From NCBI GenBank assembly GCA_031402955.1, contig JANNSS010000043.1, positions 746 through 64,745 on the forward strand: a stretch of 64,000 nt of DNA, written 5' to 3'. Below are positions 4,105 through 48,458 of the stretch, one piece after another. Origin of the DNA: Saprospiraceae bacterium (GTDB lineage: Bacteria; Bacteroidota; Bacteroidia; Chitinophagales; Saprospiraceae). The notes below the pieces were generated by a model. The model did no database searches. It saw only the letters and a program-made list of their open reading frames with translations, and was not told the origin of the DNA. Position numbers and translations under genes: made by a program. Positions within the stretch are counted from its first letter, which is position 1. The number at the start of each line of letters is the position of its first letter.

Positions 4105-7100
4105 TTAGTTTTTAGTCACTTGAACCCTATTACCCTGACTGTGGCTCCCAAACTCCGGCGCATACATACACTGCAACGTGGCCAGGCCTTCACTGTAGGC
4201 ACCTGCCTGAGCAACAGTCACAGGATACTCAATGACATATTTACCACGTGGCAGGTAATCAATAAAAAAATGAGTAGCGAGGTCACGGGTACTTTGATAA
4301 TAACCTAATCCACTAGCCCACCGGTATCCGCTTAGTACATCCATTGGTTCAAATCCTGAAGCTCTCAGATCTTTCAAATGGACAAATTCCATCGCCCTGT
4401 CCGTTTCGATGATTAGTCTGACTATTAATTTGTCACCAACTTTCAATGCCCTGAAGGGAGCAACTTCCGTTACCTCTCCCCGATCCGTATTATTGACGAT
4501 CAGTAATGAACGGGTCACCTTGAGCGGGTTATTGTCAAGTGTTGACTTGACTTTATCAATATCTTCCCAGTATTGCCAGTATGCACTTCCCCATGCTATA
4601 TGTGAATTTGGATTGCTTACCGTGACGGATGACCAGTCCGGTTTGATCTGATCTCCAGTCCAGGATTTTTTCACATAGCCGGTGCCGCCCTCTGCGGAGG
4701 TAGAACTACCTATCACCTCCTGCCCACCAAGTTTGACCTGGACTATCCCGACAGATTGCAACCATGTATCCGGATGAATCAGCAAAGCATAGATCGCAGA
4801 AGCAGTTGCCTTGGTTGTTTTCCATTGGGTAGTTTGCTTCTGCTTTAACAACCAGACCCTCAGTTCATCTATTTCTGCCTGTGGTACATCCATGTCCTGG
4901 AATAATTCAATCATCAGAGATTGTAACTCCACGGCTGCTTCATTCCATTGAAATCCCGGAGATAATTTCCAATAACGTCCGAGTTCTTCATGGACGATGG
5001 TTCGCTCGCGTAGTGAAGCAAGAATCTCCTTAGAAACATTCGCTTGCGGCCATGTCCTGAAACTTGCCAATGCGGCCAACCCCTGATCATATATGCCAAA
5101 CTGCAACCAGTACTTTTCAATCTGCGCCTGCAGGTAACTATTGATTTCATCCATTTGCGCAGGATGTTCAATGTTGGTATAGAATGAACGCGTATACAGA
5201 TAATGCAACTGCATGGAACTTATCTGAAGGTCACTCATTTTTAGTTTTCCCTTTGCCTCAAGTTTCTTCAGCTCATCATACCATTCCATCATTCGAGAAT
5301 CAATATAGGGCACAGCTTTCTGAATGATATCATTTCCATTACCGGCCGGTAGAGCAACACCCATCTTGTTTAAATGACCGAATCCTTCAAGTATATATTG
5401 TGTGATATACCAGTTGTCCCTGCCTCCGGGGAACCAGGCGAATCCTCCATTCGACATCTGCATCTGGCGTAATTGATCAAGAGATTGCTGACTTTCATTT
5501 CGCAATCTGTTTGTTTCAAATAAAAGTGCAATGTCCTTTTTCTGTTGGGATTCTCCCATAGCATCACGCACCCAGGGAGTTTCTTCAAGCAATGCTGATT
5601 TCAAGTCCTGGTTCTTTGACAAGTTACTGACCAGGGCATCATCACCTGTCGCATTCCACGCATTATATACCTGGCGTATAGCAGGATACTTTCCGGCGAT
5701 ATGGGAAGCAAGAGTATTAGCATACATCCTGCTGAAAATCTGCTCAGCACATTCATGTGGATACTCCATTAGGTAAGGCAAAGCCTGTACTGCATACCAG
5801 GCAGGTGATGTAGTCATTTCCACTACGTATTGATGGTTGATGGAGTTTGCAGACTTCTTGTCCAACATTGATTTGAAAACAAATGTCCTTGTCTCATTTG
5901 CTTTAATCGGCAGAGGTAATGTCTCTGTGATTAAAATACTGTTGCTGACTACAGGCAGGATTGATTCTTCACCATCTGAAAATGCTCCTGCTGATGCTGT
6001 GACCTGGTATTTGACAGGTCTCTTCCAACCTGAAGGAACATATAGTGTCCAAGCAAGGGGAGTACTTCCATTTTGCACTACTTGCAATGCCTGTTCAGTG
6101 GATTTCAAACCCCATGCAGCTGAAACATCTTCATCCGTAAAGGCATCGATGATCATTAGCTTTGATTTACCAGATATAGCTGTATTGGTCAGATTAGAGA
6201 CTTTAATCTGAAAAGCTATGGTATCGCCATCACGAAAAAATCGTGGAGGATTCGGGAATACCATCAATTGCTTTTGTGTAACTGCTTCGGCCTGAGCCAA
6301 TCCAAAGGCAAGGTCCTTCGTATGAGCCAGAGCCTGAAATTTCCATCGGGTTAAGCCTTCTTTCATTTTAAAAGAGAACGTCAACCTGCCTTGATCATCC
6401 GTATTGATCTGAGGATAAAAGAAAACCGTTTCATCAAGCACTGATCGTACAGGAGAAGGGGATATCAACTCATCAACAGATTCTTTTTTGCTATTATCTA
6501 CTTGATTCATTTGATCTGCCTCGCCGGGGGCCGCTCCTTCTTCCAATGCGGAAGGAGCTGGCATTTCTCCAGCTGAATATTGCCACCTATATTCTATATC
6601 TCCATCTTTATATCTTTTACCACCACGTACCATCGGATGATATCCACCTTCCGGATAATACCCATATTCATTGATGTCCCTGTATTGTCTTACCGGTATA
6701 TCCTGGTAGTTTTGTTCCCATGGATAAGCCAATCCCCAATAGTTAGCAGCAACTGGCTGAGTCCATTGAATTCCAATGCGTGATGATGTAGAAGGATATA
6801 AACTCATTTGCCATTGGTGCGGAACAAATGCATCCAGTGAAGCATCATACATACTCATCACCAACTCAGCCATGACTTTCTCCTGTTTCTGTCCTTCCAC
6901 AGTCAACGTCCATGTTTCTTCATCACCGGGCTCCATTTTATCACGCCAGGTCTTCAGATTTACTTTCAATTCTTTATTTGACCAGGGCACCTGTATCAAT
7001 TGCTGGTCTTTAAAGAACCGGTTGTTGTACGCCGTAAGATGATGCACATAGACACCTCCTCTGTCTTCCTCTGTCAACTTAATAAGGGGATCTGCAGTCA

Positions 7101-10100
7101 TTGGCAAGTTAAGCATGCTCCTTTTAGCAGGTGGGGTGCGGTGCTCTATCACCCTGATCATTTTGGGAGGTGCTACGATCCCAGTGAGCAAATCAAAATA
7201 AACAGTATTTCCTGGCTCGTATTTCTGATCTTTGAAATCTATCTGACTAACTTCAAAACCTGGCAACAACTGACCTTTGTCATATGCCATGATATATTGG
7301 TCCATCTTGAATTCATTGCCGGTGGCATCTTTCCAGGTCGAGCTAACTTTATAATATCCAGGAGCTGTAATCAGGGAAGAAAAATCCATGGTACCTGTAC
7401 CATCCACTACAAACGATTTCTTTCCAATTACTCTATCTACTGGCCAACCAGACATTTTTTCCCGCCCAGGCACAGCATAATCTGCAAACCTTGTTACATA
7501 ATCCTGCTCAGATAAGCTAAGTATATCCGGAGCTGTCCACAATCTGTTTCGTCGATTCTGCGCAGGTCCTTTTATTGCTGAAACTTCAACCTCTCCATTT
7601 ACTTTTACATCAGCACCATCAGTATTGGTGGCCATGACCTCAATTGACTCCAGTGCTTGCATTGAAACCCGTTCACGAAGACTGATATTGATCTCGTAAC
7701 CTTGTTGATTCAGTACAAGGAATTTCGTTGCTTCATGTGTTTCTCCAGTGATATCTGTCACTATAACAGTGATTTCAAACCTGTACATTAAGTCCGGATC
7801 TCCACCTGGCTTTCCCTTGGCAGGAAATGTGATAATGATGCCGCCATCCTCTTGCGTAAATAACTGACCTGTTGCCAGTACCTGTCGGTCATCATCTCCA
7901 GGCCAGAAACTTTTATAATAACCGTACCACCAAGGCCTGTAAGCAATACGCTCTACACGATATCCTGCTATAGCTCCTGCAACAGGACTGCCAGCATAAT
8001 CCTTGGCCATACCATTTACTGTAACATTTTCATTTAACCGGACTACTTGATTGAGTGTATCAAAAATGACCTCAAACTTTGGACGCTTATACTCCTCCAC
8101 ACGGAAATAATGTCTACCCGAGCCATAACTTGAGGAAATGGACATCTGACCTGTCAGACCTCCCGATGGAAGATCAACCTGTCCGAAAAAAGTACCGTAA
8201 GCATTGGTTGTTAATGACTGCTTTGAAACCACTTGTCCATTCGCGTCGTATAATACGACATCCACATTTTTATTGGTGACAATGGAGGGCAGACCCGACT
8301 TGTCAAAATCCAGTGCATAACCCTTGAAATAGAGTTTCTGACCAGGCCTGTAAATGGACCTGTCTGTAAAGAACAGTGTCGTAGGATTTGATTTGACACC
8401 TGCTGTATACCTATAAGAATAATAAGCATCATCCACATACAACTCATCCTCCCCTTTCGTGAGCCTGAGAGAAATACTCTTATTGTCATGCGCTGGAATC
8501 TGAATCCATCCGCTAGCATCACTGACCGCTTGACCGAGTTTCAGTTCCTCTTGCTTTCTGAGGCCTGCATTATATTCAAAAGAAATAAATTCAACCTTGA
8601 CATCCTTCATCGGCAGACCAGTGGATCTGTTGACCACCGCCGCTACTTCCCCTTGATCTTTATCATCCAGATACCAGTAGGCTAACTCGGATACAGTAAA
8701 CATTACTGTACCGGATGTAGCCGTATTGTTTGTGAAGTTTTCATGATCGGATATCAAGAGCGCATAGTGACCAACGGGTAAAGCAGGCACCGCAATTTCC
8801 GTAGAGTGTTGCTGGTGATCATTCCCTGAATCAAAAGTTTCCTTCCAATCCTTTCTGGAGGATAATTGATTTAATCTTCGTAAGACCTCCTCACCATCCC
8901 ATGCATCACCCCGCCATCTTCTGGGGGATTCCGGAAGCTTTACAATTTTAAAATACATGGATGAAAAATTCCGGTATTCCAACTGAGCTAACAATTCCTC
9001 ACCTGGCAGGCATATGGATTCGACACTGGCAGAAACCGACTTTTGTTCTATTTGTTGTATCAGGGTTTTGCATAATTGACTTCCATACGCATCAGGGAAT
9101 GTACGGATCGCACGTTCACAAATTTCCTTTGCCTCGTTATAAGCGTATCGCATTGAGGAATCCCGTTCTTCCCGCCATTGACTGCCTTGGTTGATCAATA
9201 ATTGAGCCCTGTAATAATCGATGAGCGTTGATTCAGGATTATCCTTGTGCTTCTTTGCCAGATTCATCAAGGCAGCCTGATACAATGAATCCTTATTGTC
9301 GATGAGGATATATTGATGCACAAACTGAAGCCGTTTTAGATCTGCGTCCAGTAAAGCTGATTCATGGGCGTCATCAGCGAGACGGAATGCGATAAGATCC
9401 TGAAACCAACTTAGCGCTAGCCAGGTTGATGATGTGCTGTCTGCTGTAGGGAAATTGTGTGCTGCAAAGGATATGGCCGGATTGAATGCATTTGGATCAG
9501 TCAACACAAAATCATAAGCAGGCTTAGTGAGGTATGATTCTGTTCCTGCATAAAAATCTAATGCACGATGCATTAGTATATCATATAAGGTTGGCCTTAG
9601 ATCATCTGTATTCTGTTCTTCTGTCAGCAAAGGAAGAAATGCTTTGACATCTGCAGTTTTTAATCCTTCCCATTGAACTGACTGTTTATAATGGGAATGA
9701 ATCTTATCTGTAAAATGGCGGATTCCCCATGTGCGGATATCAGGACCTGCGATTCCTCCGAATTCTGTGCGATTCTTCAATTCCCAAAGATGCGTTTGAA
9801 GATAGATCGTATACCAACGTGCCAACAGTGAATGCATAATTGATTTTGCCGGCTCAGGGAAGGACTTCAACTCGGCTTCCCCGCGCTCCAATGCCTTGAT
9901 AGCAGAGTCTTCCTCGAGCTGGGTGAGGTATCTGTTTTCGAATAAAGTGGCCTTGATGAGGTTGTTAGATTCAGAACCACTTAAAGCCAATTGTTTGATT
10001 TTCCTCACTTCTTCCAATGCTGAGGTCGCAAGGCCCTTCTGCTCAAGTGAATCAATGGATTTCCATAGTTTCTCCATTACCACAGGATCAACCATTGGTG

Positions 10101-10182
10101 GATTGGTGGCAGGAGCTGGCCTGGATTTGCAGGACAACAGAAACAAAATGGCAAATGCCATCGCAAATAATTGGTATTTCAT
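4105..10182 (-). CDS. Alpha-2-macroglobulin family lipoprotein with a putative thioester
   Basis: 2025 aa with the lipobox LFLLSC. The sequence YLMEYPHECAEQIFSR contains a CxEQ thioester motif (CAEQ at 5740-5751, in frame). MG-domain-like beta-rich repeats are present. Confidence 0.85.
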   Translation of the reverse strand: MKYQLFAMAFAILFLLSCKSRPAPATNPPMVDPVVMEKLWKSIDSLEQKGLATSALEEVRKIKQLALSGSESNNLIKATLFENRYLTQLEEDSAIKALERGEAELKSFPEPAKSIMHSLLARWYTIYLQTHLWELKNRTEFGGIAGPDIRTWGIRHFTDKIHSHYKQSVQWEGLKTADVKAFLPLLTEEQNTDDLRPTLYDILMHRALDFYAGTESYLTKPAYDFVLTDPNAFNPAISFAAHNFPTADSTSSTWLALSWFQDLIAFRLADDAHESALLDADLKRLQFVHQYILIDNKDSLYQAALMNLAKKHKDNPESTLIDYYRAQLLINQGSQWREERDSSMRYAYNEAKEICERAIRTFPDAYGSQLCKTLIQQIEQKSVSASVESICLPGEELLAQLEYRNFSSMYFKIVKLPESPRRWRGDAWDGEEVLRRLNQLSSRKDWKETFDSGNDHQQHSTEIAVPALPVGHYALLISDHENFTNNTATSGTVMFTVSELAYWYLDDKDQGEVAAVVNRSTGLPMKDVKVEFISFEYNAGLRKQEELKLGQAVSDASGWIQIPAHDNKSISLRLTKGEDELYVDDAYYSYRYTAGVKSNPTTLFFTDRSIYRPGQKLYFKGYALDFDKSGLPSIVTNKNVDVVLYDANGQVVSKQSLTTNAYGTFFGQVDLPSGGLTGQMSISSSYGSGRHYFRVEEYKRPKFEVIFDTLNQVVRLNENVTVNGMAKDYAGSPVAGAIAGYRVERIAYRPWWYGYYKSFWPGDDDRQVLATGQLFTQEDGGIIITFPAKGKPGGDPDLMYRFEITVIVTDITGETHEATKFLVLNQQGYEINISLRERVSMQALESIEVMATNTDGADVKVNGEVEVSAIKGPAQNRRNRLWTAPDILSLSEQDYVTRFADYAVPGREKMSGWPVDRVIGKKSFVVDGTGTMDFSSLITAPGYYKVSSTWKDATGNEFKMDQYIMAYDKGQLLPGFEVSQIDFKDQKYEPGNTVYFDLLTGIVAPPKMIRVIEHRTPPAKRSMLNLPMTADPLIKLTEEDRGGVYVHHLTAYNNRFFKDQQLIQVPWSNKELKVNLKTWRDKMEPGDEETWTLTVEGQKQEKVMAELVMSMYDASLDAFVPHQWQMSLYPSTSSRIGIQWTQPVAANYWGLAYPWEQNYQDIPVRQYRDINEYGYYPEGGYHPMVRGGKRYKDGDIEYRWQYSAGEMPAPSALEEGAAPGEADQMNQVDNSKKESVDELISPSPVRSVLDETVFFYPQINTDDQGRLTFSFKMKEGLTRWKFQALAHTKDLAFGLAQAEAVTQKQLMVFPNPPRFFRDGDTIAFQIKVSNLTNTAISGKSKLMIIDAFTDEDVSAAWGLKSTEQALQVVQNGSTPLAWTLYVPSGWKRPVKYQVTASAGAFSDGEESILPVVSNSILITETLPLPIKANETRTFVFKSMLDKKSANSINHQYVVEMTTSPAWYAVQALPYLMEYPHECAEQIFSRMYANTLASHIAGKYPAIRQVYNAWNATGDDALVSNLSKNQDLKSALLEETPWVRDAMGESQQKKDIALLFETNRLRNESQQSLDQLRQMQMSNGGFAWFPGGRDNWYITQYILEGFGHLNKMGVALPAGNGNDIIQKAVPYIDSRMMEWYDELKKLEAKGKLKMSDLQISSMQLHYLYTRSFYTNIEHPAQMDEINSYLQAQIEKYWLQFGIYDQGLAALASFRTWPQANVSKEILASLRERTIVHEELGRYWKLSPGFQWNEAAVELQSLMIELFQDMDVPQAEIDELRVWLLKQKQTTQWKTTKATASAIYALLIHPDTWLQSVGIVQVKLGGQEVIGSSTSAEGGTGYVKKSWTGDQIKPDWSSVTVSNPNSHIAWGSAYWQYWEDIDKVKSTLDNNPLKVTRSLLIVNNTDRGEVTEVAPFRALKVGDKLIVRLIIETDRAMEFVHLKDLRASGFEPMDVLSGYRWASGLGYYQSTRDLATHFFIDYLPRGKYVIEYPVTVAQAGAYSEGLATLQCMYAPEFGSHSQGNRVQVTKN

Positions 10183-16006: not shown

Positions 16007-16261
16007 TGAGCTAGATATTAAAATAAAAACTTATGTAAAGATAAGTATTTTTCAATACAATACATATTATTTAAAAAAATAATATGTAAAATCGCCCATT
16101 CCCCGGGTTTTTTAACGGTTTTCATGGCTTGGTACCAATCTGTTTAAAAAAAGCTAATTGCGTCCAACTTGACACTCGGTGAGAAAACTTGGCTAAAGAA
16201 CCTGAGAGTTTCTATTTTTATCACTTCATCCGCAATTATTATCTACCAGAGCAACTCACAT

Positions 16262-19195
16262 ATGCGCATCTTTATTTCTACCTGCTTTTTTCTCCTGACA
16301 ACACTTACTGTGTTAAACTCCCAAAAACTGGACCATCGTTTAGGCTATGTCCTGATCCAGATAGAAAAAGGAACTTCCCCTAGTCAGGTATTTTCAGATA
16401 ATGCTTCAAGAATACTTGGAGACCTCTTCCAGGATCGCATTATTTCAAAACGCCTTGGCATATACCTGGTCAGATTTGATCACAGCCGGATACATGAAGG
16501 ACAACTTCTGAATCAGCTCAGGGCCGACAAAAATGTACGGACGGCACAATTTGACCACCTCCCTACCCTCAGAACTGAGCCGAATGATCCGCAGTTCTTT
16601 TCTCAATGGCAATGGCTCAATACCGGCCAGACTGGTGGCCAGATAGATGCTGATATTGATGCAGAAACAGCATGGAACTACACCCAGGGTGGCTTGACTG
16701 CTGCGGGTGACACGATTGTCGTGGCTATCATAGACGATGGCCTCGACTACACACATGAAGATATAGCAGCAAATGCATGGATCAATTACCACGAGATAGA
16801 TGGCAATAACTTCGATGATGACGGCAATGGTTACATTGACGATATCCGGGGATGGAATGCCTACAACGATACTCCGGAAATCTGGGGTGAAAATCATGGT
16901 TTAAATGTTGCCGGTATGATCGGTGCCACAGGCAATAACCAAATTGGGATATCCGGCATCAACTGGAATGTCAAGATCATGATGATCGTCGGGGGAACCC
17001 CTGAATCGGCTGCTATTGCATCTTATGCCTATGCCTTAGAGCAGCGTATTCAATATAATGAGAGCAATGGTGCAAAGGGTGCCTTTGTGGTTGCTACTAA
17101 TAGTTCATGGGGTGTTGATTTTGGACAACCGGCAGATGCCCCGTTATGGTGTGCTTTTTATGACACGCTGGGAGCCCACGGAATATTGAGTGCTGGAGCA
17201 ACGGCTAATTTAAATATTGATATCGATGCTAACGGGGATCTGCCAACAGCATGTCCTAGTGAATACCTACTGAGCGTTACAGCACTCAATCACAACAATG
17301 AACGAACATTTTCTGCCTTCGGACTTACTCAGGTTGATTTTGGAGCACCCGGGGAGGATATTTTTACCACCAACAGGAATAATGGCTATACCACGACGAG
17401 TGGCACCTCATTCGCATCACCGGTTGCCGCAGGCGTTGTAGCACTCCTGTATTCAGCGCCATGCCCTGGATTTGCGGACTTAATTCACACCAATCCTTCC
17501 GCTGCTGCCTTGTATGTGCGTGATCTGATGTTCCAGGGTGTAGATCCTATTGCAGGAATGGAGAGTACGATTCGTTTTGGTGGTGGTCTCAACGCAGGTA
17601 AAAGCATGGAACTCCTGATGTCCCTATGCTCCGATTGCCCTATTCCTTTTGCAGTTGAGGCTGATGTGTTATCTGACACAGAGGTCAACATCATCTGGAA
17701 CGCACTCGATACTGCAGACGCTATCAATGCCAGGTATAAACCAATTACTTCCACAGACTGGGATACGCTTTTTGATGTTTCACAACCGCTTGTGCTGGAC
17801 AATCTCTCCGGATGCACCGAATATGAAATTGAATTCGAAGCCATCTGCGCTGATACCTCCACAGGCTTTACAACCAATCACCATTTCAACACACTGGGCT
17901 GTTGCGAACTTCCATCCGGCATCACAACCTTTGCCGATGAATCCAGCATCCTGATTTTCTGGAATGGTATTTTTGCTGCAGAAGCTTATCTCGTTCAATG
18001 GCGTCCAGATTCCACCACTGAGTGGATTGAAGAAGTAACTCCTGATACTATTTACACTATCGGGCAACTGGAAGGATGTACGTACTATGAAGTCAGATTG
18101 CAAACAGATTGTGATACCAGCGCCTCTGGTTTTTCTGAAATCATCCGGATCAGAACTAAAGGTTGTGGCAGCTGTATTGATCTTGAATATTGTGCTTCTG
18201 CATCTGAAGATGCTTCTGAAGAGTTTATAGATTCTTTGATTCTGGGATCGCTGGTGAGCTATACAGGTGAAAATGGCGGATATCTTTTTGTTGATGATCT
18301 GGATCCAAATTATGAAGCTGGTGAATCCTATAATCTGTGGATACGTCCTGGGTTCAGCCCGGGAGATTCATTTGATGAAAAATTCAGAATATGGTTGGAT
18401 GCTAACCAGGATGGCAATTTTGAAGAAGATGAATTATTGCTGGATTCTCTCCTGCTTGCAGAAGATGGTTTTATCAGCAGCCAGTTGACGATACCTGCCG
18501 AAGCTTTGGAAGGCTCCACCCGAATGCGGGTCAGCATGGCTTTTTCCAATCCATTTTTTCCTACCAATCAGGAACCATGTGGCTTCATTGATTTCGGTGA
18601 GGTTGAGGATTACTGTGTTACAATCCTGAGAAACCCCGACCCTTGTCCGGAAGTTGATACTGTATATTTTGACGGGATCAACTTTACAAGTGCCTTTATG
18701 TACTGGCCTGAAACTGAAGGGGCGATCGCTTATACTTATCGCTGGCGTGAAGTTGGGACAATGGACTACACAGAACTTGCAACTATTGATACCACTGCGC
18801 TGATAGATGGTCTTGAAAAATGCAAAACGTATGAGGTGCAGATACGGACCGTGTGTTTGTCTGACACCACCAGTTATGGATTTAATTACTTGCTCGAATC
18901 TGATTGTGATGTTGCGGTTGAAGAAGTGAATCCATTATTAGCTTCTTTTCTCGTGTACCCTAATCCGGTGACAGAAAATGTTTCTATACAATTGCTGCCA
19001 ACAGAAACAGGAAATCATACGGTCTCTCTCTATACGATGCAAGGGCAGCAGGTTCAGCACAAAACCATCTTTGCAGAAAGAAGCATAAAATCCGAAATCA
19101 GATTTGATCAACTGGATGTATATCCAACTGGCCTTTATTTTATAGTTGTGGCCAAGGATGGTAAAACAGCAACGAAGAAATTAGTTAAACTCTAG
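16262..19195 (+). CDS. Secreted subtilisin-like S8 serine protease with a GEVED domain and a T9SS C-terminal sorting domain
   Basis: The catalytic triad contexts are VAIIDDGLD, NHGLNVAGMIGA and SGTSFASPVAAG. It also has FGEVEDYCV and three Cys-bracketed FN3-like modules. The tail VYPNPVTENVSIQL...GLYFIVVAKDGKTATKKLVKL matches a T9SS sorting domain. ATG 16262 precedes the signal peptide. Confidence 0.9.
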   Translation: MRIFISTCFFLLTTLTVLNSQKLDHRLGYVLIQIEKGTSPSQVFSDNASRILGDLFQDRIISKRLGIYLVRFDHSRIHEGQLLNQLRADKNVRTAQFDHLPTLRTEPNDPQFFSQWQWLNTGQTGGQIDADIDAETAWNYTQGGLTAAGDTIVVAIIDDGLDYTHEDIAANAWINYHEIDGNNFDDDGNGYIDDIRGWNAYNDTPEIWGENHGLNVAGMIGATGNNQIGISGINWNVKIMMIVGGTPESAAIASYAYALEQRIQYNESNGAKGAFVVATNSSWGVDFGQPADAPLWCAFYDTLGAHGILSAGATANLNIDIDANGDLPTACPSEYLLSVTALNHNNERTFSAFGLTQVDFGAPGEDIFTTNRNNGYTTTSGTSFASPVAAGVVALLYSAPCPGFADLIHTNPSAAALYVRDLMFQGVDPIAGMESTIRFGGGLNAGKSMELLMSLCSDCPIPFAVEADVLSDTEVNIIWNALDTADAINARYKPITSTDWDTLFDVSQPLVLDNLSGCTEYEIEFEAICADTSTGFTTNHHFNTLGCCELPSGITTFADESSILIFWNGIFAAEAYLVQWRPDSTTEWIEEVTPDTIYTIGQLEGCTYYEVRLQTDCDTSASGFSEIIRIRTKGCGSCIDLEYCASASEDASEEFIDSLILGSLVSYTGENGGYLFVDDLDPNYEAGESYNLWIRPGFSPGDSFDEKFRIWLDANQDGNFEEDELLLDSLLLAEDGFISSQLTIPAEALEGSTRMRVSMAFSNPFFPTNQEPCGFIDFGEVEDYCVTILRNPDPCPEVDTVYFDGINFTSAFMYWPETEGAIAYTYRWREVGTMDYTELATIDTTALIDGLEKCKTYEVQIRTVCLSDTTSYGFNYLLESDCDVAVEEVNPLLASFLVYPNPVTENVSIQLLPTETGNHTVSLYTMQGQQVQHKTIFAERSIKSEIRFDQLDVYPTGLYFIVVAKDGKTATKKLVKL

Positions 19196-42706: not shown

Positions 42707-43561
42707 CTATTTGATATTTAAAGACTCCAATTGGTATACCATCAATGGAATTGACTGCTGGTATGACATTTCCTTTGCTCTGTTTTTTTCAAATATTTCG
42801 TCAAACCAGCTGCGTCGTTGGGATAGGATCGCCAGCAAGTCAATTTTCTTTTCCAACATGCATGCTTCCAGGCCTGCATTGATATCTTTATTGACAACAC
42901 AGTGGCAGGTCATTTTTTTATCCTGCTGCCATGGTTCAAAGAATTTTTTCAACTGTTCCTGACCTTCCCCATTGGATGTGGTGTCAACGTGAATCACATG
43001 CAAATGGCTACCCATGATATCCCGAAACTTTCTCAACGCTTCGATGAGCACCGCATCATCTTTGCTTAAATTGGTAGCTACACCTATGTGGTCAATGAGG
43101 CCATCAAATTGTGCGTCTGTAGGAACCACAATGACAGGACAATGCGCCTCCTCCATCACCTTGCCTGAAATGGTTCCAAAAAAGAAGGCTTCCATCATTC
43201 CCGCACCGGTAGCCCCCATGACGATGAGGTCAGCTTTGTTTTTATTGGCAGTCCGTAATATGGCGGAGACAGGCGCACCTTCTTCCAGTACATGAACCAT
43301 CGGCACATGGTAGTAGCCATTTTCCGTTGCAATATCCCGGAGTACTGGAATCTCGTCTTCATAATTTTCGAACTCCTCCAGGTCTATAGAATCATAGACT
43401 TCCCTCAGCACCCCTGGCAGGTTGAAATCGCTGATATCGGGTTTGTCGAAAGCATGTAATGTAATGACTGAGGCGCCCAGGTGGTCTGCTATCTGTAAAG
43501 CAAAGATGAACGCATTTTCCGCCGTGTCGGAGAAGTCCGTCGGATAAAGAATTTTTTTCAT
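42707..43561 (-). CDS. Tandem universal stress protein (UspA) domains
   Basis: The start is MKKILYPTDFSDTAENAF. Two Usp modules are present, one carrying the VMGATGAG ATP-binding motif. Confidence 0.8.
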   Translation of the reverse strand: MKKILYPTDFSDTAENAFIFALQIADHLGASVITLHAFDKPDISDFNLPGVLREVYDSIDLEEFENYEDEIPVLRDIATENGYYHVPMVHVLEEGAPVSAILRTANKNKADLIVMGATGAGMMEAFFFGTISGKVMEEAHCPVIVVPTDAQFDGLIDHIGVATNLSKDDAVLIEALRKFRDIMGSHLHVIHVDTTSNGEGQEQLKKFFEPWQQDKKMTCHCVVNKDINAGLEACMLEKKIDLLAILSQRRSWFDEIFEKNRAKEMSYQQSIPLMVYQLESLNIK

Positions 43562-43724
43562 TAATGGTTTTCCATTTTCAAAACAAAAGGCTTCAAACGA
43601 GTGTAATGAGATTGCTAAAATAGTATAAAGAGATGATACACCAAATAAAACCATTTCCCGGCACTCCTTCAACCCCAAATCTCCGGAATACGGTCGATCC
43701 TTTTAAAAAAAGTAATTTTATCCC

Positions 43725-45626
43725 ATGTTAAAATCCGGAATTATCTTTTGTCTGGCAGCGTCTATCATATTGCTTGGTTTAACCTCGCCCGTGAATCCTC
43801 CTGGTCCACGGGGTGGGCCTGTTCCTTTAAACCAAAAAGTCGCTCATTCATCCCATTGCAGTGGATGTCATGGCTTAGATGAAACAGGAAAGGCGCTTGT
43901 TGACTCAGATGGAAATGATGTCAGTATTTTTGATGACTGGCAGATCAGTATGATGGGATTGTCCGCACGGGACCCTTTCTGGAGGGCTACCATGGCACAT
44001 GAGGTCAACTTATATCCATCCGCGAAACAAGCCATCGAAAGCACCTGTCTAAAATGTCATGCGCCCCTTGGGAGTTTTGAAGCAACCCGTAACAACCAAC
44101 CCTACTCATACGAAATCATGCTTGGGGATAGCCTTGGATTAGATGGAGTATCTTGCAGTGCATGTCATCAACAACCAGCTGCCGGGTTAGGTGCGGGATT
44201 TTCCGGCAACTACACCCTGGATACCAACCGACTGATGTATGGCCATTATCCTAATCCCTTTAAGGGGCCAATGCAAATCTACGTAGGCTTTGAACCAGAA
44301 TTTTCTGACCATATCTATTCGAGCGGAGTATGTGCCAGCTGCCATACGCTGATCACAGAGACACTTCAGCCTGATGGCACACCTTCAGGTGATTTTTTTG
44401 TCGAGCAGGCTACGTATCATGAATGGCTCAATTCAATCTACCCGGCTCAGGGTAAAGAATGTCAGACCTGCCATATGCCGTTCATCAACGATGCGGTCAT
44501 CATTGCGACTGATTTTGCGGCTTTAGAACCAAGAGAACCATACGGGTTGCATCAGTTTTTCGGCGCTAATACTGCCATGCTAGACCTGATGAACGCTAAT
44601 AAAGAAAATCTAAATCTCCCTTCAGGCGAAAGCAGCCACGCCTGGACTGAATCTATAAACAATAACAGGATCAGCCTTTCAAATGCAGCCGTATTCAGTG
44701 TGCCTTCCCTCTATATCGCTGATGACACGTTGTTTTTATCTCTCACCGTAAAAAACAAAACCGGACACAAACTACCTTCCGGGTATCCAAGCAGATTAGC
44801 CTGGATAGAGATCCATCTCAAAGAAAGTACGTCCCAGGACCCATTTTATTCAAACGGTGCATTAGATGCTGAAGGTAACATTGCAGGCAGAGACCATCCT
44901 TTTGAGCCACATCACCAGGTGTCCAGATCCGAGGATGATGTGCAAATTTATGAAATGGTCATGTCTGACCTGGGAGGCCATCTCACGACTCGTCTGAACG
45001 CAGCCTTTAAGCCTTTAAAGGACAACAGGCTGCTACCAACAGGATTTAGGGTGGACCATGCAGTGTTTGATACGGTTGCTACCTGGGGCAATGTTAACGA
45101 GGATCCTGATTTCACTACCGAAAGCAATAACGGATTGGATAGAATTGAATACAGAATTCCGTTGAGTGGAAAAACAGGATTAGCAGATCTTTCCGTTTCA
45201 CTTCGGTATCAGACCTTACCGGCCCGATGGATGGCTGATTTGTTTAGTAACGACACAGTTGAGCAAGTTGCTCAGTTCAAATCTATGTATCAGGGCTATG
45301 AAGGTTTCAATGAAGTGATCAATCAAATTACAATTGACAGTATTGATCTTTCAACCACCGCGGTCAGTCCGATTGAATCCATTTCCATCTTCACACTCTC
45401 CCCAAACCCGGTGACCAACAGAAAAATTCACATAAGCCTTTCAGCGCTTTACGATTCAAGAAATAGCCTGCATTATCGGATCATCGATCTGAATGGAATG
45501 CTTATCCAGGAAGGCTCAATGGATGAAAACATTGAACTGAATATGAGGATTACAGCAGCAGTCTACTACTTCGCGCTATTTGATCAAAACCGCCAGGTGT
45601 GTATAAAACCTTTTGTGATCCTATAA
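43725..45626 (+). CDS. Secreted pentaheme c-type cytochrome with a T9SS C-terminal sorting domain
   Basis: 633 aa with a signal peptide. Five CxxCH motifs are present (CSGCH, CLKCH, CSACH, CASCH, CQTCH), along with GHKLPSGYPSR. The tail LSPNPVTNRKIHISL...YRIIDLNGMLIQEG...VYYFALFD...IKPFVIL matches a T9SS sorting domain. Confidence 0.75.
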   Translation: MLKSGIIFCLAASIILLGLTSPVNPPGPRGGPVPLNQKVAHSSHCSGCHGLDETGKALVDSDGNDVSIFDDWQISMMGLSARDPFWRATMAHEVNLYPSAKQAIESTCLKCHAPLGSFEATRNNQPYSYEIMLGDSLGLDGVSCSACHQQPAAGLGAGFSGNYTLDTNRLMYGHYPNPFKGPMQIYVGFEPEFSDHIYSSGVCASCHTLITETLQPDGTPSGDFFVEQATYHEWLNSIYPAQGKECQTCHMPFINDAVIIATDFAALEPREPYGLHQFFGANTAMLDLMNANKENLNLPSGESSHAWTESINNNRISLSNAAVFSVPSLYIADDTLFLSLTVKNKTGHKLPSGYPSRLAWIEIHLKESTSQDPFYSNGALDAEGNIAGRDHPFEPHHQVSRSEDDVQIYEMVMSDLGGHLTTRLNAAFKPLKDNRLLPTGFRVDHAVFDTVATWGNVNEDPDFTTESNNGLDRIEYRIPLSGKTGLADLSVSLRYQTLPARWMADLFSNDTVEQVAQFKSMYQGYEGFNEVINQITIDSIDLSTTAVSPIESISIFTLSPNPVTNRKIHISLSALYDSRNSLHYRIIDLNGMLIQEGSMDENIELNMRITAAVYYFALFDQNRQVCIKPFVIL

Positions 45627-48458
45627 GCGGATAATTTTTTGAGTATACTTTTGCCCATTGTTATTTATGCTGATCAGATAAACTCCGGGAGGATATGCTG
45701 ACAGATCAATTTGTATCGCATTGTTTTCAGGAGCGATATCATGCTGAACCAGAACACGCACACCATCCATCCGTAAAATTTCTACATCACAGGATCCTTC
45801 TGTTTTCATCTTTAATTGAATGAGCCCATCTGTTGGATTAGGGGTAACTATGAATACCTGCTCTTTATCAGTTGGTTGGTTCGTTGCTGTACCCAGATCG
45901 ATAACTGCAGTAGCCGGAACAAAGTCAGTAAAACATTCTTTATCCAATGTTGAAATTTTCCAGTCGTAGAAATAATAGTAGAAATCTTCTCCGAATGTAG
46001 AATTGTAGATAGACACGACACTCTGGATTTCATATGGATAAACCACATTCTCCGATGACCTCCATAGGTATGGACTATTTGTCCCAAAATTCTGATTATT
46101 GATATCTGTGTTTGTAGTCATTGTATAACTACCCACCTGAAGCTCTATCTCCAGGTCAATCACTGTCAACCCTGGTTGGAGATCCAACTGGTACTCAAAA
46201 AAGAAATTCAGTCCGTTATTGATATCGATGCTCCTTGTGCCTGCTGAATCTGTAAACACTGTAATCTGATGAAGGATGATTGGCTCCAGAACATCAAACA
46301 ACTGGCCTCCATTGACAAAGGCGGCGTTATACTTCGTTAAGCCTTCGTGCTGTGCCGGCCCTAACTGGAAATCCCCTCCTTCAATGAGTGCGGCATTACG
46401 GGCATAGATAGTCACGGTATCTGTAAGATTGTCGAGTTGAATACTATTTCCACTACCTATTTGGAGATTACCAAATGGATCAGAAAACCAATTAACATGA
46501 TCTCCGGTGGAGGCTAGCACAGCTGATTCCCCCGGCAAGAAAGTATCATTTGTTGTCACGGGTGGCTCAGGAATAAGGAATTCAAGTTGGACGGTATCTG
46601 ATTCCTGTAACTTACAATAACCTTCAACTTGGGCAAAATACTCACCGGTTGTTGTTGCATTAATAGTCTGTGTAGTTTCTCCTGTTGACCACGCGTATGA
46701 AAAAGCTGAGGGCAGGCTAAGGAGCACAGACTCTCCATCACATAATTGAGGATCAGAAATGTACGTAATCGATGGTCGTATCGTGTCAGGATCCAATCCA
46801 ACTTCAAGTGGGGATGTACGTAAAATGCATCCATCCAACCCAGTAAGCGTTGCAAAATAGAGCCCCTCCTCTCTGATAATAATAGAATCAGCAGATGTAC
46901 CATCACTCCATTCTATAAGAGATAACGCTGAATCCATGTGAATGATGATGGAGTCATCTTCGCAGAGTACAACTAAAGGCTCCAGGATGTCCAGTGGTTG
47001 TTTCCAACATCCGCCTCTTGTGAGGGACCAGGTTTTGTCGGTTTCGAGCTGGTTGTATTGCTCTCTTGTGCCATCAGGCCATCTTATGATCAGACTGTCA
47101 TAAGTGGTTTGATCGCCAAGGCCAAAAATAATACTATGTCCACTAGACACGCCATACTGCTCCCCTCCGCGTACTTCCCTGACCTGAATACCCCATGATC
47201 CATAGAGACTAGCCGTTGCCCCGATGGCAGAAGGATTACCTGCAGTATCCTTGAGGTTCATCCCCAGGTAATGGTTATCATTTTTATCGTTCAGAAACAA
47301 GATATCCTCACGTAACGCATCGGGATTGTTGAAAGGAATAACTCTCGATGCGTATACATCGGTAAATCCATCCCTGTTGAGGTCCCCTAATGCGAAGGTT
47401 CCAAAAACCACATTGCTAAAAGGATTCGTTTTTGTAAACGTCTTATCCCCGTTATTATGATAATAATCCAGGCGGTCACCACTCACGAGAATATCCTGGA
47501 ACCCGTCATTATCAAAATCTCTCAGCAAACCTTGCAACGGTACGCCCCCAATGTTCAGACCAGTGGTTGAGGTGATATTGATAAATGTATCGTTGTTGAT
47601 ATTTTCATACAATTCGCTGATGACATCGTGCTGCGTTTTAAACAGATCCATGTCGCCGTCATTATCAATGTCCCCAAAATCCGCGGTCCAGGTCTGACGT
47701 CCGTCAGCCAGACCATAATTGGCGGCATCTTCAGTGTAATTTCCTGAACCGTCATTGACAAAAAGCACATCAATCCTTCTTGGATCTAAAGGACTGTTGA
47801 CCCCCTGGCGGCATTTAGCGATATAAAAGTCGCTGTCCCCGTCCATGTCAAAGTCTGTATACACTGAACCATAGTTCCCCGAATTGTCGGATGGAGGTAC
47901 AGTTACAAAATTAAACAGGTCCTGCTCTACAAGCGTGCCGGTCCCGTCGTTCATCAATGTATAATTCAATCCATTGTCATTGAGCATCACCACATCAACC
48001 CAGCCATCGTGATTAAAATCCCCGGCTGAAGCGCCCTGCGAAAAGAAGGGTGTCACTACGATATGTGTCAGTGTGAAGGAATAAGTATAAGGATTACTGT
48101 ACAGCACCTTGACTCTGTCATAAGACCCTACTGCCAGGATATCATTGGCCCCGTCATTGTTGAAATCCGCAATACAGATATCATTTTGCTCAGCGTTATC
48201 GATGGTCACCGGCACCTCATACCGCACAAATGGCCGGGAAGGTTCCGGGGTCTGGTATTGAATAAAAAGCCGCGACCCGAAATTGAGCGTGACAATATCA
48301 TCCAGCCCATCGCCATTCATGTCTGCTATACCTACGGGAACGGCACTGTGCTGATCTTTTTCTGCTAGCAAATCATTTCGATTTGCAAACTGAGCCTGGC
48401 CAGACAAAGTGGTCACAGCAAAGGAAAGAAGCAGGATTGGTAAAAAACGTGCCTTCAT
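45621..48458 (-). CDS. FG-GAP/VCBS repeat plus ASPIC/UnbV (CRTAC1-like) protein with a T9SS C-terminal sorting domain
   Basis: 945 aa. It has repeated DxNxDGxxD loops (DFNNDGANDIL, DFNHDGWVDVV, DIDNDGDMDLF and others), the UnbV-like segment GGEQYGVSSGHSIIFGLG...IIRWPDGT, and the tail TPNPTDGLIQLKM...GVYLISINNNGQKYTQKIIRL. Confidence 0.8.
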   Translation of the reverse strand: MKARFLPILLLSFAVTTLSGQAQFANRNDLLAEKDQHSAVPVGIADMNGDGLDDIVTLNFGSRLFIQYQTPEPSRPFVRYEVPVTIDNAEQNDICIADFNNDGANDILAVGSYDRVKVLYSNPYTYSFTLTHIVVTPFFSQGASAGDFNHDGWVDVVMLNDNGLNYTLMNDGTGTLVEQDLFNFVTVPPSDNSGNYGSVYTDFDMDGDSDFYIAKCRQGVNSPLDPRRIDVLFVNDGSGNYTEDAANYGLADGRQTWTADFGDIDNDGDMDLFKTQHDVISELYENINNDTFINITSTTGLNIGGVPLQGLLRDFDNDGFQDILVSGDRLDYYHNNGDKTFTKTNPFSNVVFGTFALGDLNRDGFTDVYASRVIPFNNPDALREDILFLNDKNDNHYLGMNLKDTAGNPSAIGATASLYGSWGIQVREVRGGEQYGVSSGHSIIFGLGDQTTYDSLIIRWPDGTREQYNQLETDKTWSLTRGGCWKQPLDILEPLVVLCEDDSIIIHMDSALSLIEWSDGTSADSIIIREEGLYFATLTGLDGCILRTSPLEVGLDPDTIRPSITYISDPQLCDGESVLLSLPSAFSYAWSTGETTQTINATTTGEYFAQVEGYCKLQESDTVQLEFLIPEPPVTTNDTFLPGESAVLASTGDHVNWFSDPFGNLQIGSGNSIQLDNLTDTVTIYARNAALIEGGDFQLGPAQHEGLTKYNAAFVNGGQLFDVLEPIILHQITVFTDSAGTRSIDINNGLNFFFEYQLDLQPGLTVIDLEIELQVGSYTMTTNTDINNQNFGTNSPYLWRSSENVVYPYEIQSVVSIYNSTFGEDFYYYFYDWKISTLDKECFTDFVPATAVIDLGTATNQPTDKEQVFIVTPNPTDGLIQLKMKTEGSCDVEILRMDGVRVLVQHDIAPENNAIQIDLSAYPPGVYLISINNNGQKYTQKIIRL

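Follow-up and report, generated by a model that had tools for sequence, protein, structure and literature searches.

The open reading frame (ORF) at positions 43725–45626 of the forward strand, in a 64,000-nucleotide stretch of a Saprospiraceae genome (hereafter the window; GenBank assembly GCA_031402955.1, contig JANNSS010000043.1, positions 746 to 64,745), encodes a c-type cytochrome with five heme-binding motifs and a tail which is very likely a sorting domain of the type IX secretion system (T9SS). On balance, we favor the view that this protein is a T9SS-exported pentaheme electron relay of the PHC type, working with a co-exported CRTAC1-like propeller protein that is encoded by the adjacent gene. 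The fold of the cytochrome is known, and its likely export route and its partner are undescribed; nothing else at the locus is as informative as the conserved pairing with an FG-GAP/UnbV gene, which the original prediction had overlooked. The genome is a metagenome-assembled genome (MAG) of an uncultured bacterium, from a freshwater-sediment metagenome (4.49 Mb, 385 contigs, 97% complete). The cytochrome gene and the segments of its product, with immunoglobulin-like abbreviated as Ig-like, C-terminal sorting domain as CTD, and hidden Markov model as HMM, are the following:

43725..45626, + strand: pentaheme c-type cytochrome gene with a very probable T9SS CTD (P0001), ORF of 633 amino acids (aa).
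43725..43790, + strand: residues 1 to ~22, putative signal peptide for Sec export, with 16 hydrophobic residues after MLK.
43830..44624, + strand: predicted alpha-helical five-heme cap, residues ~36–300, from invariant Cys and His residues, Cytochrome_C7, and a Foldseek match to 5ze8.
43857–43871, 44046–44060, 44154–44168, 44331–44345, and 44460–44474, + strand: CxxCH motifs.
44637..45368, + strand: stem, an Ig-like beta-sandwich carrying a conserved insertion, residues ~305–548, from predicted secondary structure; H396 and K432-D-N-R435 belong to it.
44763–44795, + strand: invariant stem loop G347-H-K-x-P-S-G-x-P-x-R357, aligned to 5ze8 and MccSep 9wt8.
45381..45623, + strand: very probable type-A T9SS CTD, residues 553–633, from PF18962, tail HMMs, and the family profile.

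The original prediction, made without database searches, had described this ORF as a pentaheme c-type cytochrome with a signal peptide and five CxxCH motifs in its first 250 or so residues. Its boundaries proved exact and the identification is borne out by the fold match to 5ze8 and by the motifs themselves (CSGCH 45–49, CLKCH 108–112, CSACH 144–148, CASCH 203–207, and CQTCH 246–250), which all lie within residues 45–250 and whose ten cysteines and five histidines are invariant in an alignment of 39 homologs sharing 37–76% identity. From residue frequencies, only about 0.002 such motifs would be expected by chance in a protein of this size. The Pfam Cytochrome_C7 model also scores above its cut-off (26.7 vs. 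24.8 bits). At the N-terminus, MLK precedes a hydrophobic run of 16 residues (SGIIFCLAASIILLGL), whose length fits a signal peptide, as had been proposed; the pattern is conserved in the 39-homolog alignment and is modeled as a helix over residues 2–19. A beta-rich domain of ~250 aa lies between the heme region and the 80-aa tail.

We are confident that this tail is a genuine, if somewhat divergent, type-A CTD. Its match to PF18962 spans profile positions 3–75 of 75 and residues 560–632 of 633, the same profile is matched by 29 of the 39 relatives at an E-value of 0.01 or below (best 8e-12), and two orthologs, P0107 and P0113, exceed the TIGR04183 cut-off with 29.3 and 39.1 bits. An HMM built from the last ~80 columns of the family retrieves ~146 other ORFs of the same genome, nearly all at their extreme C-termini; in the reverse direction, an HMM built from these 146 other cargo tails, with the cytochrome excluded, finds the cytochrome tail at 35.3 bits (independent E-value 1e-10, residues 544–632) and detects it in 108/108 full-length near homologs. 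The family profile further matches solved CTD structures, namely those of beta-agarase (8h97), 8glk_D, 8glj_D, gingipain R2, and mirolase. In the AlphaFold model, the tail comprises seven predicted beta-strands (residues 556–632, confidence score pLDDT 75–92), and it carries PNP (560–562), DLNG, and VYY motifs and a lysine near its end. P560, N561, P562, and G591 are invariant among the 39 homologs and G612 is at least 90% conserved. The original prediction had noted that the S8 protease and the FG-GAP protein of the window share the tail pattern, and both do carry clear Por_Secre_tail domains (41.6 bits for the protease at 16169–19195, 40.4 bits for the FG-GAP protein). We conclude that the CTD is under purifying selection; a useless 80-aa appendage would not be expected to be kept, with invariant PNP and Gly residues, in 108/108 near homologs.

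The genome encodes the machinery that such a tail calls upon. Profile searches identified SprA (2304 bits), PorU (1080 bits), and PorV (464 bits), the latter directly downstream of porU. The heme-c assembly family PF01578 has three matches over cut-off, including 1036-aa CcsBA-like and 899-aa CcmF-like ORFs, so that the cytochrome c maturation system, for which a genome check had been suggested, is present. Taken together, the CTD, the heme-c maturation genes, and SprA, PorU, and PorV make display on the cell surface, or release from it, the most economical reading, as proposed at the outset; the transport itself is deduced from sequence, and on this basis we regard export of the cytochrome by T9SS as probable. 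The apo-cytochrome would be exported by the Sec system and would receive its hemes in the periplasm from a CcsBA-type system II, the genes of which are present. The folded holoprotein would then be recognized via its type-A CTD and moved across the outer membrane by SprA, PorV, and PorU, after which CTD removal would be followed by release of the cytochrome or by its anchoring to the surface. Outside the cell, it would work with the T9SS-tagged CRTAC1-like protein, whose gene has the following features:

45621..48458, − strand: gene for the partner, a CRTAC1-like protein of 945 aa, convergent with the cytochrome gene.
47019–48458, − strand: FG-GAP propeller plus UnbV_ASPIC, residues 1 to ~480 (FG-GAP_3 98.8 bits, UnbV_ASPIC 52.6 bits).
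45864–47018, − strand: Cys-rich Ig-like repeats and a beta domain, residues ~481–865 (Ig_7 27.8 bits).
45624–45863, − strand: T9SS CTD (Por_Secre_tail 40.4 bits, TIGR04183 46.3 bits).

The stop codons of the two genes overlap by 6 nucleotides (45621–45626), which leaves no room for separate terminators. A search for RNA-sequencing runs gave none that covers this region. The model of the partner (pLDDT 85) has murine CRTAC1 as its top fold match (9etn_A, E-value 1.4e-21, TM score 0.68, root-mean-square deviation 4.5 Å), and its Ig-like middle part resembles fragments of GhpA, the T9SS-dependent grappling hook of Aureispira (Foldseek E-values 1e-15 to 1e-9). As modeled, the protein thus resembles a stalk topped by a propeller. 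A CTD-like tail ends all 31 of the 31 tabulated partner ORFs, and the PNP at residues 873–875 is invariant in an alignment of 28 sequences that includes the window copy.

The conservation of this pairing was assessed in other genomes. A motif scan of a collection of species genomes confirmed at least 599 relatives of the cytochrome among the 600 matches listed, and the locus counts given here refer to the best 80 species loci of these. In 41 of the 80 (6 of 30 loci in a smaller first sample), the cytochrome gene has within 5 kb a propeller relative that is 33–93% identical to the window copy, and the pair may be convergent, co-directional with the propeller downstream, or divergent with the propeller upstream. 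In the close clade, the partner is found in 9/9 members with enough flanking sequence. The window genome contains six other propeller paralogs, all of them at most 28% identical to the partner, from which the probability of a chance adjacency is estimated at ~2%. Adjacency clusters on the family tree (105 members), where it changes 11 times, compared with a mean of 27.3 after shuffling, none of 500 shuffles being as low; the window clade has the propeller partner in 12 of 14 rows, the flanks of the other two being too short to tell, and the clade of cytochromes from other classes of the phylum has no propeller partner. That adjacency is kept while orientation changes points to functional coupling rather than to a shared operon history, and we consider such coupling between cytochrome and propeller to be quite likely.

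Apart from one record, the best 80 loci all belong to Bacteroidota, nearly all of them being MAGs; their lineages are Saprospiraceae, Chitinophagales, Flavobacteriales, and Lewinellaceae, with titles mostly naming Saprospiraceae or Flavobacteriales. The exception, CAZGBP010000022.1 (L144), is titled "uncultured Bifidobacteriaceae bacterium" and carries a Bacteroidota cytochrome–propeller pair; it sits on very short branches beside a Chitinophagaceae MAG (L142) and is probably a mis-binned or mislabelled contig. The cytochrome family at large is bigger, with more than 4,898 homologs, a relative in 28 of 401 genomes of a phylum sample, and, for the core (residues 37–552), 510 representative clusters at an E-value of 1e-30 or below in a library clustered at 50% identity.

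What the cytochrome may do in this pair is suggested by its fold. The AlphaFold model (pLDDT 79.7 overall) has a single convincing match in the PDB, which is also its top Foldseek match, 5ze8 (E-value 4.3e-13, TM score 0.67 on the target, 17% identity); searching the PDB directly with the cytochrome sequence gave nothing of use, and only the family profile and the fold search brought up 5ZE8. A PHC family has been proposed to include ExtKL, Gsu2801, and 5ZE8, in all of which a helical cap with five hemes sits on an Ig-like stem (PMC11976967), and the modeled cytochrome has this PHC fold, a helical five-heme cap plus an Ig-like stem. Among motifs other than the heme sites, the one best conserved in the family is a loop of the Ig domain: the family profile aligns GHKLPSGYPSR to PHAMPTGAPFR of 5ze8, and weakly to MccSep 9WT8, with the shared pattern H-x-x-P-x-G-x-P-x-R. 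Outside the heme motifs, H232, H276, H348, H396, M77, M183, M285, and K432-D-N-R435 are invariant in the 39 homologs. Among these, M77, H232, H276, H348, and H396 are five candidate distal ligands, a number that fits five six-coordinate hemes, and M77, which lies in an SMM motif and replaces a His of 5ZE8, suggests that one heme may be His/Met-ligated.

A second clue comes from relatives of the pentaheme module that are fused to another kind of propeller. In three separate clusters (P0197, P0213, and P0231), one of them (P0197) named from Phycisphaerae, the module is C-terminal to a sugar dehydrogenase propeller of the GSDH (PF07995), pyrroloquinoline quinone (PQQ) type; the P0213 fusion also has an F5/8-type C carbohydrate-binding domain, and its C-terminus consists of a hydrophobic helix and then an Arg-rich tail. 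These fusions point to the module as the electron outlet of a dehydrogenase. A similar arrangement is known in quinohemoproteins such as the AA12 PQQ pyranose dehydrogenase of fungi, which carries an AA8 cytochrome domain and in which the heme domain is the electron outlet of an extracellular propeller. Because five candidate distal ligands suffice for five hemes and because relatives are fused to PQQ-type propellers, the cytochrome most likely relays electrons and does not itself convert a substrate.

An alternative reading is that the exported protein is itself catalytic, acting on the surface or after secretion as, for instance, a peroxidase or as a reductase that uses a small inorganic or organic oxidant, with an active site formed by one heme and the GHKxPSGYPSR loop as in MccSep, a periplasmic polysulfide reductase with a Cys ligand on heme 2 and a selenocysteine/Cys residue on the Ig-domain loop (10.1101/2025.11.18.688581). 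The most conserved non-heme motif is part of profile positions 335–377, which align to residues 306–348 of MccSep 9wt8_A and would thus include U325, provided that the chain is numbered as in the paper; when P0113 was searched against the PDB, 9wt8 was not among the matches, and the equivalent of U325 can be placed only approximately within the loop. The core five-heme arrangement is, moreover, shared with catalytic multiheme enzymes (10.1101/2025.11.18.688581), and the cytochrome has additional invariant Met residues (M183 and M285) and a conserved, low-confidence loop (169–192). Nevertheless, we judge the enzyme reading to be unlikely: no invariant Cys was found outside the five CxxCH motifs in the 39-homolog alignment, which excludes chemistry of the MccSep type based on His/Cys and selenocysteine/Cys, no CxxCK is present, which excludes an NrfA-type site, and the invariant His and Met residues are enough for six-coordination of all hemes. 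For the same reasons, the family is neither MccSep nor NrfA. The ExtKL model NF040886 gives 22–39 bits on relatives (best P0113, 38.7 bits, E-value 4.5e-10) and 8.9 bits, against a cut-off of 250, on the window cytochrome, so that, together with the absence of an invariant extra Cys, identity with the MccSep/ExtKL polysulfide reductase is ruled out; NrfA (PF02335) is rejected by five CxxCH motifs without CxxCK and 12.3 bits (cut-off 24.1), and the MtrC/OmcA decahemes by five hemes instead of ten and by scores of 22.3 bits on PF22113 (cut-off 30) and 10.1 bits on TIGR03507 (cut-off 209.3).

Several observations weigh against an exported relay that works with a propeller. Concerning export, the T9SS HMM searches leave the cytochrome tail under both cut-offs, with 24.1 bits on PF18962 (cut-off 27) and 12.3 bits on TIGR04183 (cut-off 23), formally an outcome that the original prediction had listed as refuting it, and it is through the independent profile evidence given above that the type-A assignment stands. 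No canonical AxA cleavage site is visible in the alignment of the window cytochrome's clade; distant relatives have clear xxA|FH cleavage sites. The closest characterized relatives, 5ZE8 and MccSep, are periplasmic. Among the 138 five-heme representatives found in the top 150, a CTD is present in 44 and absent from 94, which implies that the core function does not need T9SS. The explanation that CTD-less forms would occur only where T9SS is absent was rejected, as SprA was found in 18/18 genomes examined, including five with CTD-less copies; whether a copy carries a CTD is thus not simply a matter of whether its genome has T9SS. Our literature searches retrieved no paper combining T9SS and multiheme terms, none describing the cytochrome–propeller pair or what it does, and, with the terms T9SS, type IX, and C-terminal sorting domain, no paper linking type IX secretion to cytochrome export or electron transfer. 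Concerning the relay and its partner, heme ligation was read from sequence conservation only, the two genes are convergent in the window clade and hence not co-transcribed, and comparison of the partner with a GSDH–pentaheme fusion by hhalign detected no homology between the FG-GAP and GSDH propellers. We also know of no redox chemistry in CRTAC1-type propellers.

Some of these points would equally be expected of a cytochrome that stays in the periplasm, with a CTD that is tolerated and unused, or with a heme load that makes it a poor T9SS substrate. The window CTD is under the curated thresholds, two thirds of the family representatives do without one, and periplasmic location is documented for MccSep (10.1101/2025.11.18.688581) and, as far as the account of Chen et al. 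2019 given in PMC11976967 goes, for the Thermochromatium tepidum c552. Against this stand the retention of the CTD in every full-length near homolog, with PNP and Gly invariant down to 37% identity, and the clear CTD of the conserved partner, so that a purely periplasmic cytochrome seems improbable to us.

Within the family, the CTD goes with the kind of partner: the propeller accompanies the CTD-bearing form, and a barrel–cytochrome accompanies the CTD-less form. In a CTD-less clade of the phylum (five genomes, L065–L069, from other classes), the gene immediately upstream, on the same strand, encodes a fusion of a monoheme cytochrome c with a MetA-like outer-membrane beta-barrel (for example, L065:6789-7985, Phenol_MetA_deg 18.2 bits, below cut-off). 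A lipobox-like N-terminus is found in 36 of the 94 CTD-less representatives, and an alternative C-terminal sorting signal, a hydrophobic helix with a basic tail, in one of them (P0213). Relatives without a propeller neighbor have mixed contexts (RecF, DsbD, PLD, and others) that we judged uninformative.

The original prediction had drawn an analogy with the extracellular electron transfer of Shewanella and Geobacter, in which case the cytochrome would be a terminal reductase at the outer end of a chain crossing the outer membrane toward insoluble Fe(III) or Mn(IV), humics, or electrodes. This analogy finds no support at the locus: neither a porin nor a periplasmic cytochrome is adjacent, the partner is a propeller and not a conduit, and the closest structural relatives are soluble proteins of the periplasm. 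A role of this type may still be argued from the unusual richness of this freshwater-sediment organism in multiheme cytochromes, from weak matches to the Pfam MtrC/MtrF domain II/IV (22.3 bits here, E-values down to 5e-8 in relatives), and from the cytochrome c fused to a MetA-like barrel that adjoins CTD-less relatives. However, no linked porin or periplasmic cytochrome was found in any CTD-bearing locus examined, the conserved neighbor being the propeller; the MtrC and OmcA models remain far under their cut-offs (22.3 vs. 30 and 10.1 vs. 209 bits); the other multiheme genes of the genome have no CTD; and the best 80 loci are almost all from Bacteroidota, mostly Saprospiraceae and Flavobacteriales, which are generally regarded as aerobic heterotrophs. 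We thus hold a terminal reductase of this kind to be unlikely. Because the other multiheme genes lack a CTD and are unlinked to the cytochrome gene, respiratory extracellular electron transfer is possible for the organism and unsupported.

These other genes form a substantial set. A giant multiheme gene with ~60 hemes is split by a contig break between G000:C47:28674-33837 (10 CxxCH) and G000:C155:16-9555 (53 CxxCH), the two ORFs having the same ~40 aa at the joint; locus L003 covers C155:7327-10941 of this region. Upstream of it are genes for a 23-CxxCH protein, an oxidoreductase with flavin adenine dinucleotide and two [4Fe-4S] clusters, and a membrane protein, and downstream are genes for a 565-aa barrel-like protein (no Pfam match), a lipoprotein, and the 1036-aa CcsBA-like ORF. 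At G000:C53:7661-9715, a lipoprotein that has six hemes and a GPxGPxGP run reminiscent of collagen adjoins a DUF5777 membrane beta-barrel (237 bits), with which it may form a porin–cytochrome pair. The genome also holds a heptaheme fragment and, on C278, a six-CxxCH ORF whose gene order was read as a candidate alternative complex III cluster. The only other T9SS-tagged protein of the genome with a heme motif (one CxxCH, CSECH) is encoded at G000:C371:15073-15870 and has a choice-of-anchor V domain (90.4 bits, cut-off 42) and a TIGR04183 match (24.7 bits, cut-off 23).

Returning to an exported relay with a propeller partner, part of what it implies has been anticipated. The original prediction had stated that surface redox proteins of this kind are not a recognized trait of Bacteroidota; this no longer fully stands, since secreted multiheme cytochromes, including giant ones, have been predicted in activated-sludge Bacteroidota, without a link to T9SS (PMC11495043), and what was not anticipated is the T9SS route and the pairing with a propeller. 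If true, the T9SS route would be a new export pathway for holo-cytochromes. Surface multiheme cytochromes are otherwise known to reach the outside via type II secretion and porin–cytochrome complexes. It would also mean that extracellular redox chemistry takes place in abundant polymer-degrading Bacteroidota of sediment, soil, wastewater, and freshwater. In its broadest form, the proposal states that T9SS exports assembled multiheme cytochromes and that the pentaheme protein and the CRTAC1-like propeller form a self-contained surface oxidoreductase in many Bacteroidia (Saprospiraceae, Chitinophagales, and Flavobacteriales); we advance it tentatively, as somewhat doubtful in this generality. 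This would give cytochromes a route and a kind of redox module that are so far undescribed for them, and bacterial homologs of CRTAC1 their first functional context. The coupling to a propeller, together with the PQQ-propeller fusions, leads to the hypothesis of a propeller plus heme relay spanning two large uncharacterized protein families, and the module could matter for oxidizing sugars or polymers outside the cell, for interacting with metals or humics, or for dealing with reactive oxygen species.

Among the other genes of the window, a tandem universal stress protein gene (42707–43678, − strand) lies divergent upstream of the cytochrome gene and is kept at the same position in the near relatives L014, L015, and L017; its true start is probably the internal MKKILYPTDF, which gives ~285 aa. 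Farther away are genes for a bacterial alpha-2-macroglobulin of 2025 aa (4105–10182, − strand) and for the S8 protease (16169–19195, + strand), which has 1008 aa with fn3, GEVED, and T9SS CTD domains.

The cytochrome can be compared with several characterized systems. MtrC, OmcA, and MtrF of Shewanella are likewise multiheme c-type proteins meant for the outer face of the outer membrane, and weak local matches to PF22113 are seen here, but they have ten hemes and a four-domain fold, are lipoproteins exported by type II secretion, and dock to MtrAB, features of which none is found in the window protein. The low-potential c552 of Thermochromatium tepidum (5ZE8) likewise binds five c-type hemes in a helical domain, with an Ig-like beta-sandwich after it, and, in the account of Chen et al. 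2019 relayed by PMC11976967, is a soluble periplasmic protein of 385–435 aa; it has no CTD. In comparison, the window cytochrome has a much larger stem, a conserved insertion (residues ~380–470), and a T9SS tail, and the SMH of 5ZE8 is replaced in its family by the invariant SMM (M77). ExtKL/MccSep of Geobacter sulfurreducens (PDB 9WT8) likewise combines a pentaheme cap with an Ig-like stem, with a conserved Ig-domain loop approaching a heme; it is a periplasmic homotetramer with a heme-ligating C239 and the selenocysteine/Cys position U325 (10.1101/2025.11.18.688581), whereas the window family has no invariant Cys beyond its CxxCH motifs, and its cytochrome differs in targeting signal and in partner.

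For the pair as a whole, quinohemoprotein dehydrogenases offer an analogy of function, and relatives of the pentaheme module are fused to GSDH-type PQQ propellers; the propeller of the window differs from theirs in being a separate FG-GAP polypeptide, with undetectable similarity to GSDH and no known cofactor. Finally, murine and human CRTAC1 (9ETN) superposes on the N-terminal 530 aa of the partner, in which the FG-GAP calcium-binding motifs and UnbV_ASPIC are found, and to this common head the bacterial protein adds Cys-rich Ig-like repeats, a further beta domain, a T9SS CTD, and genetic coupling to a cytochrome.

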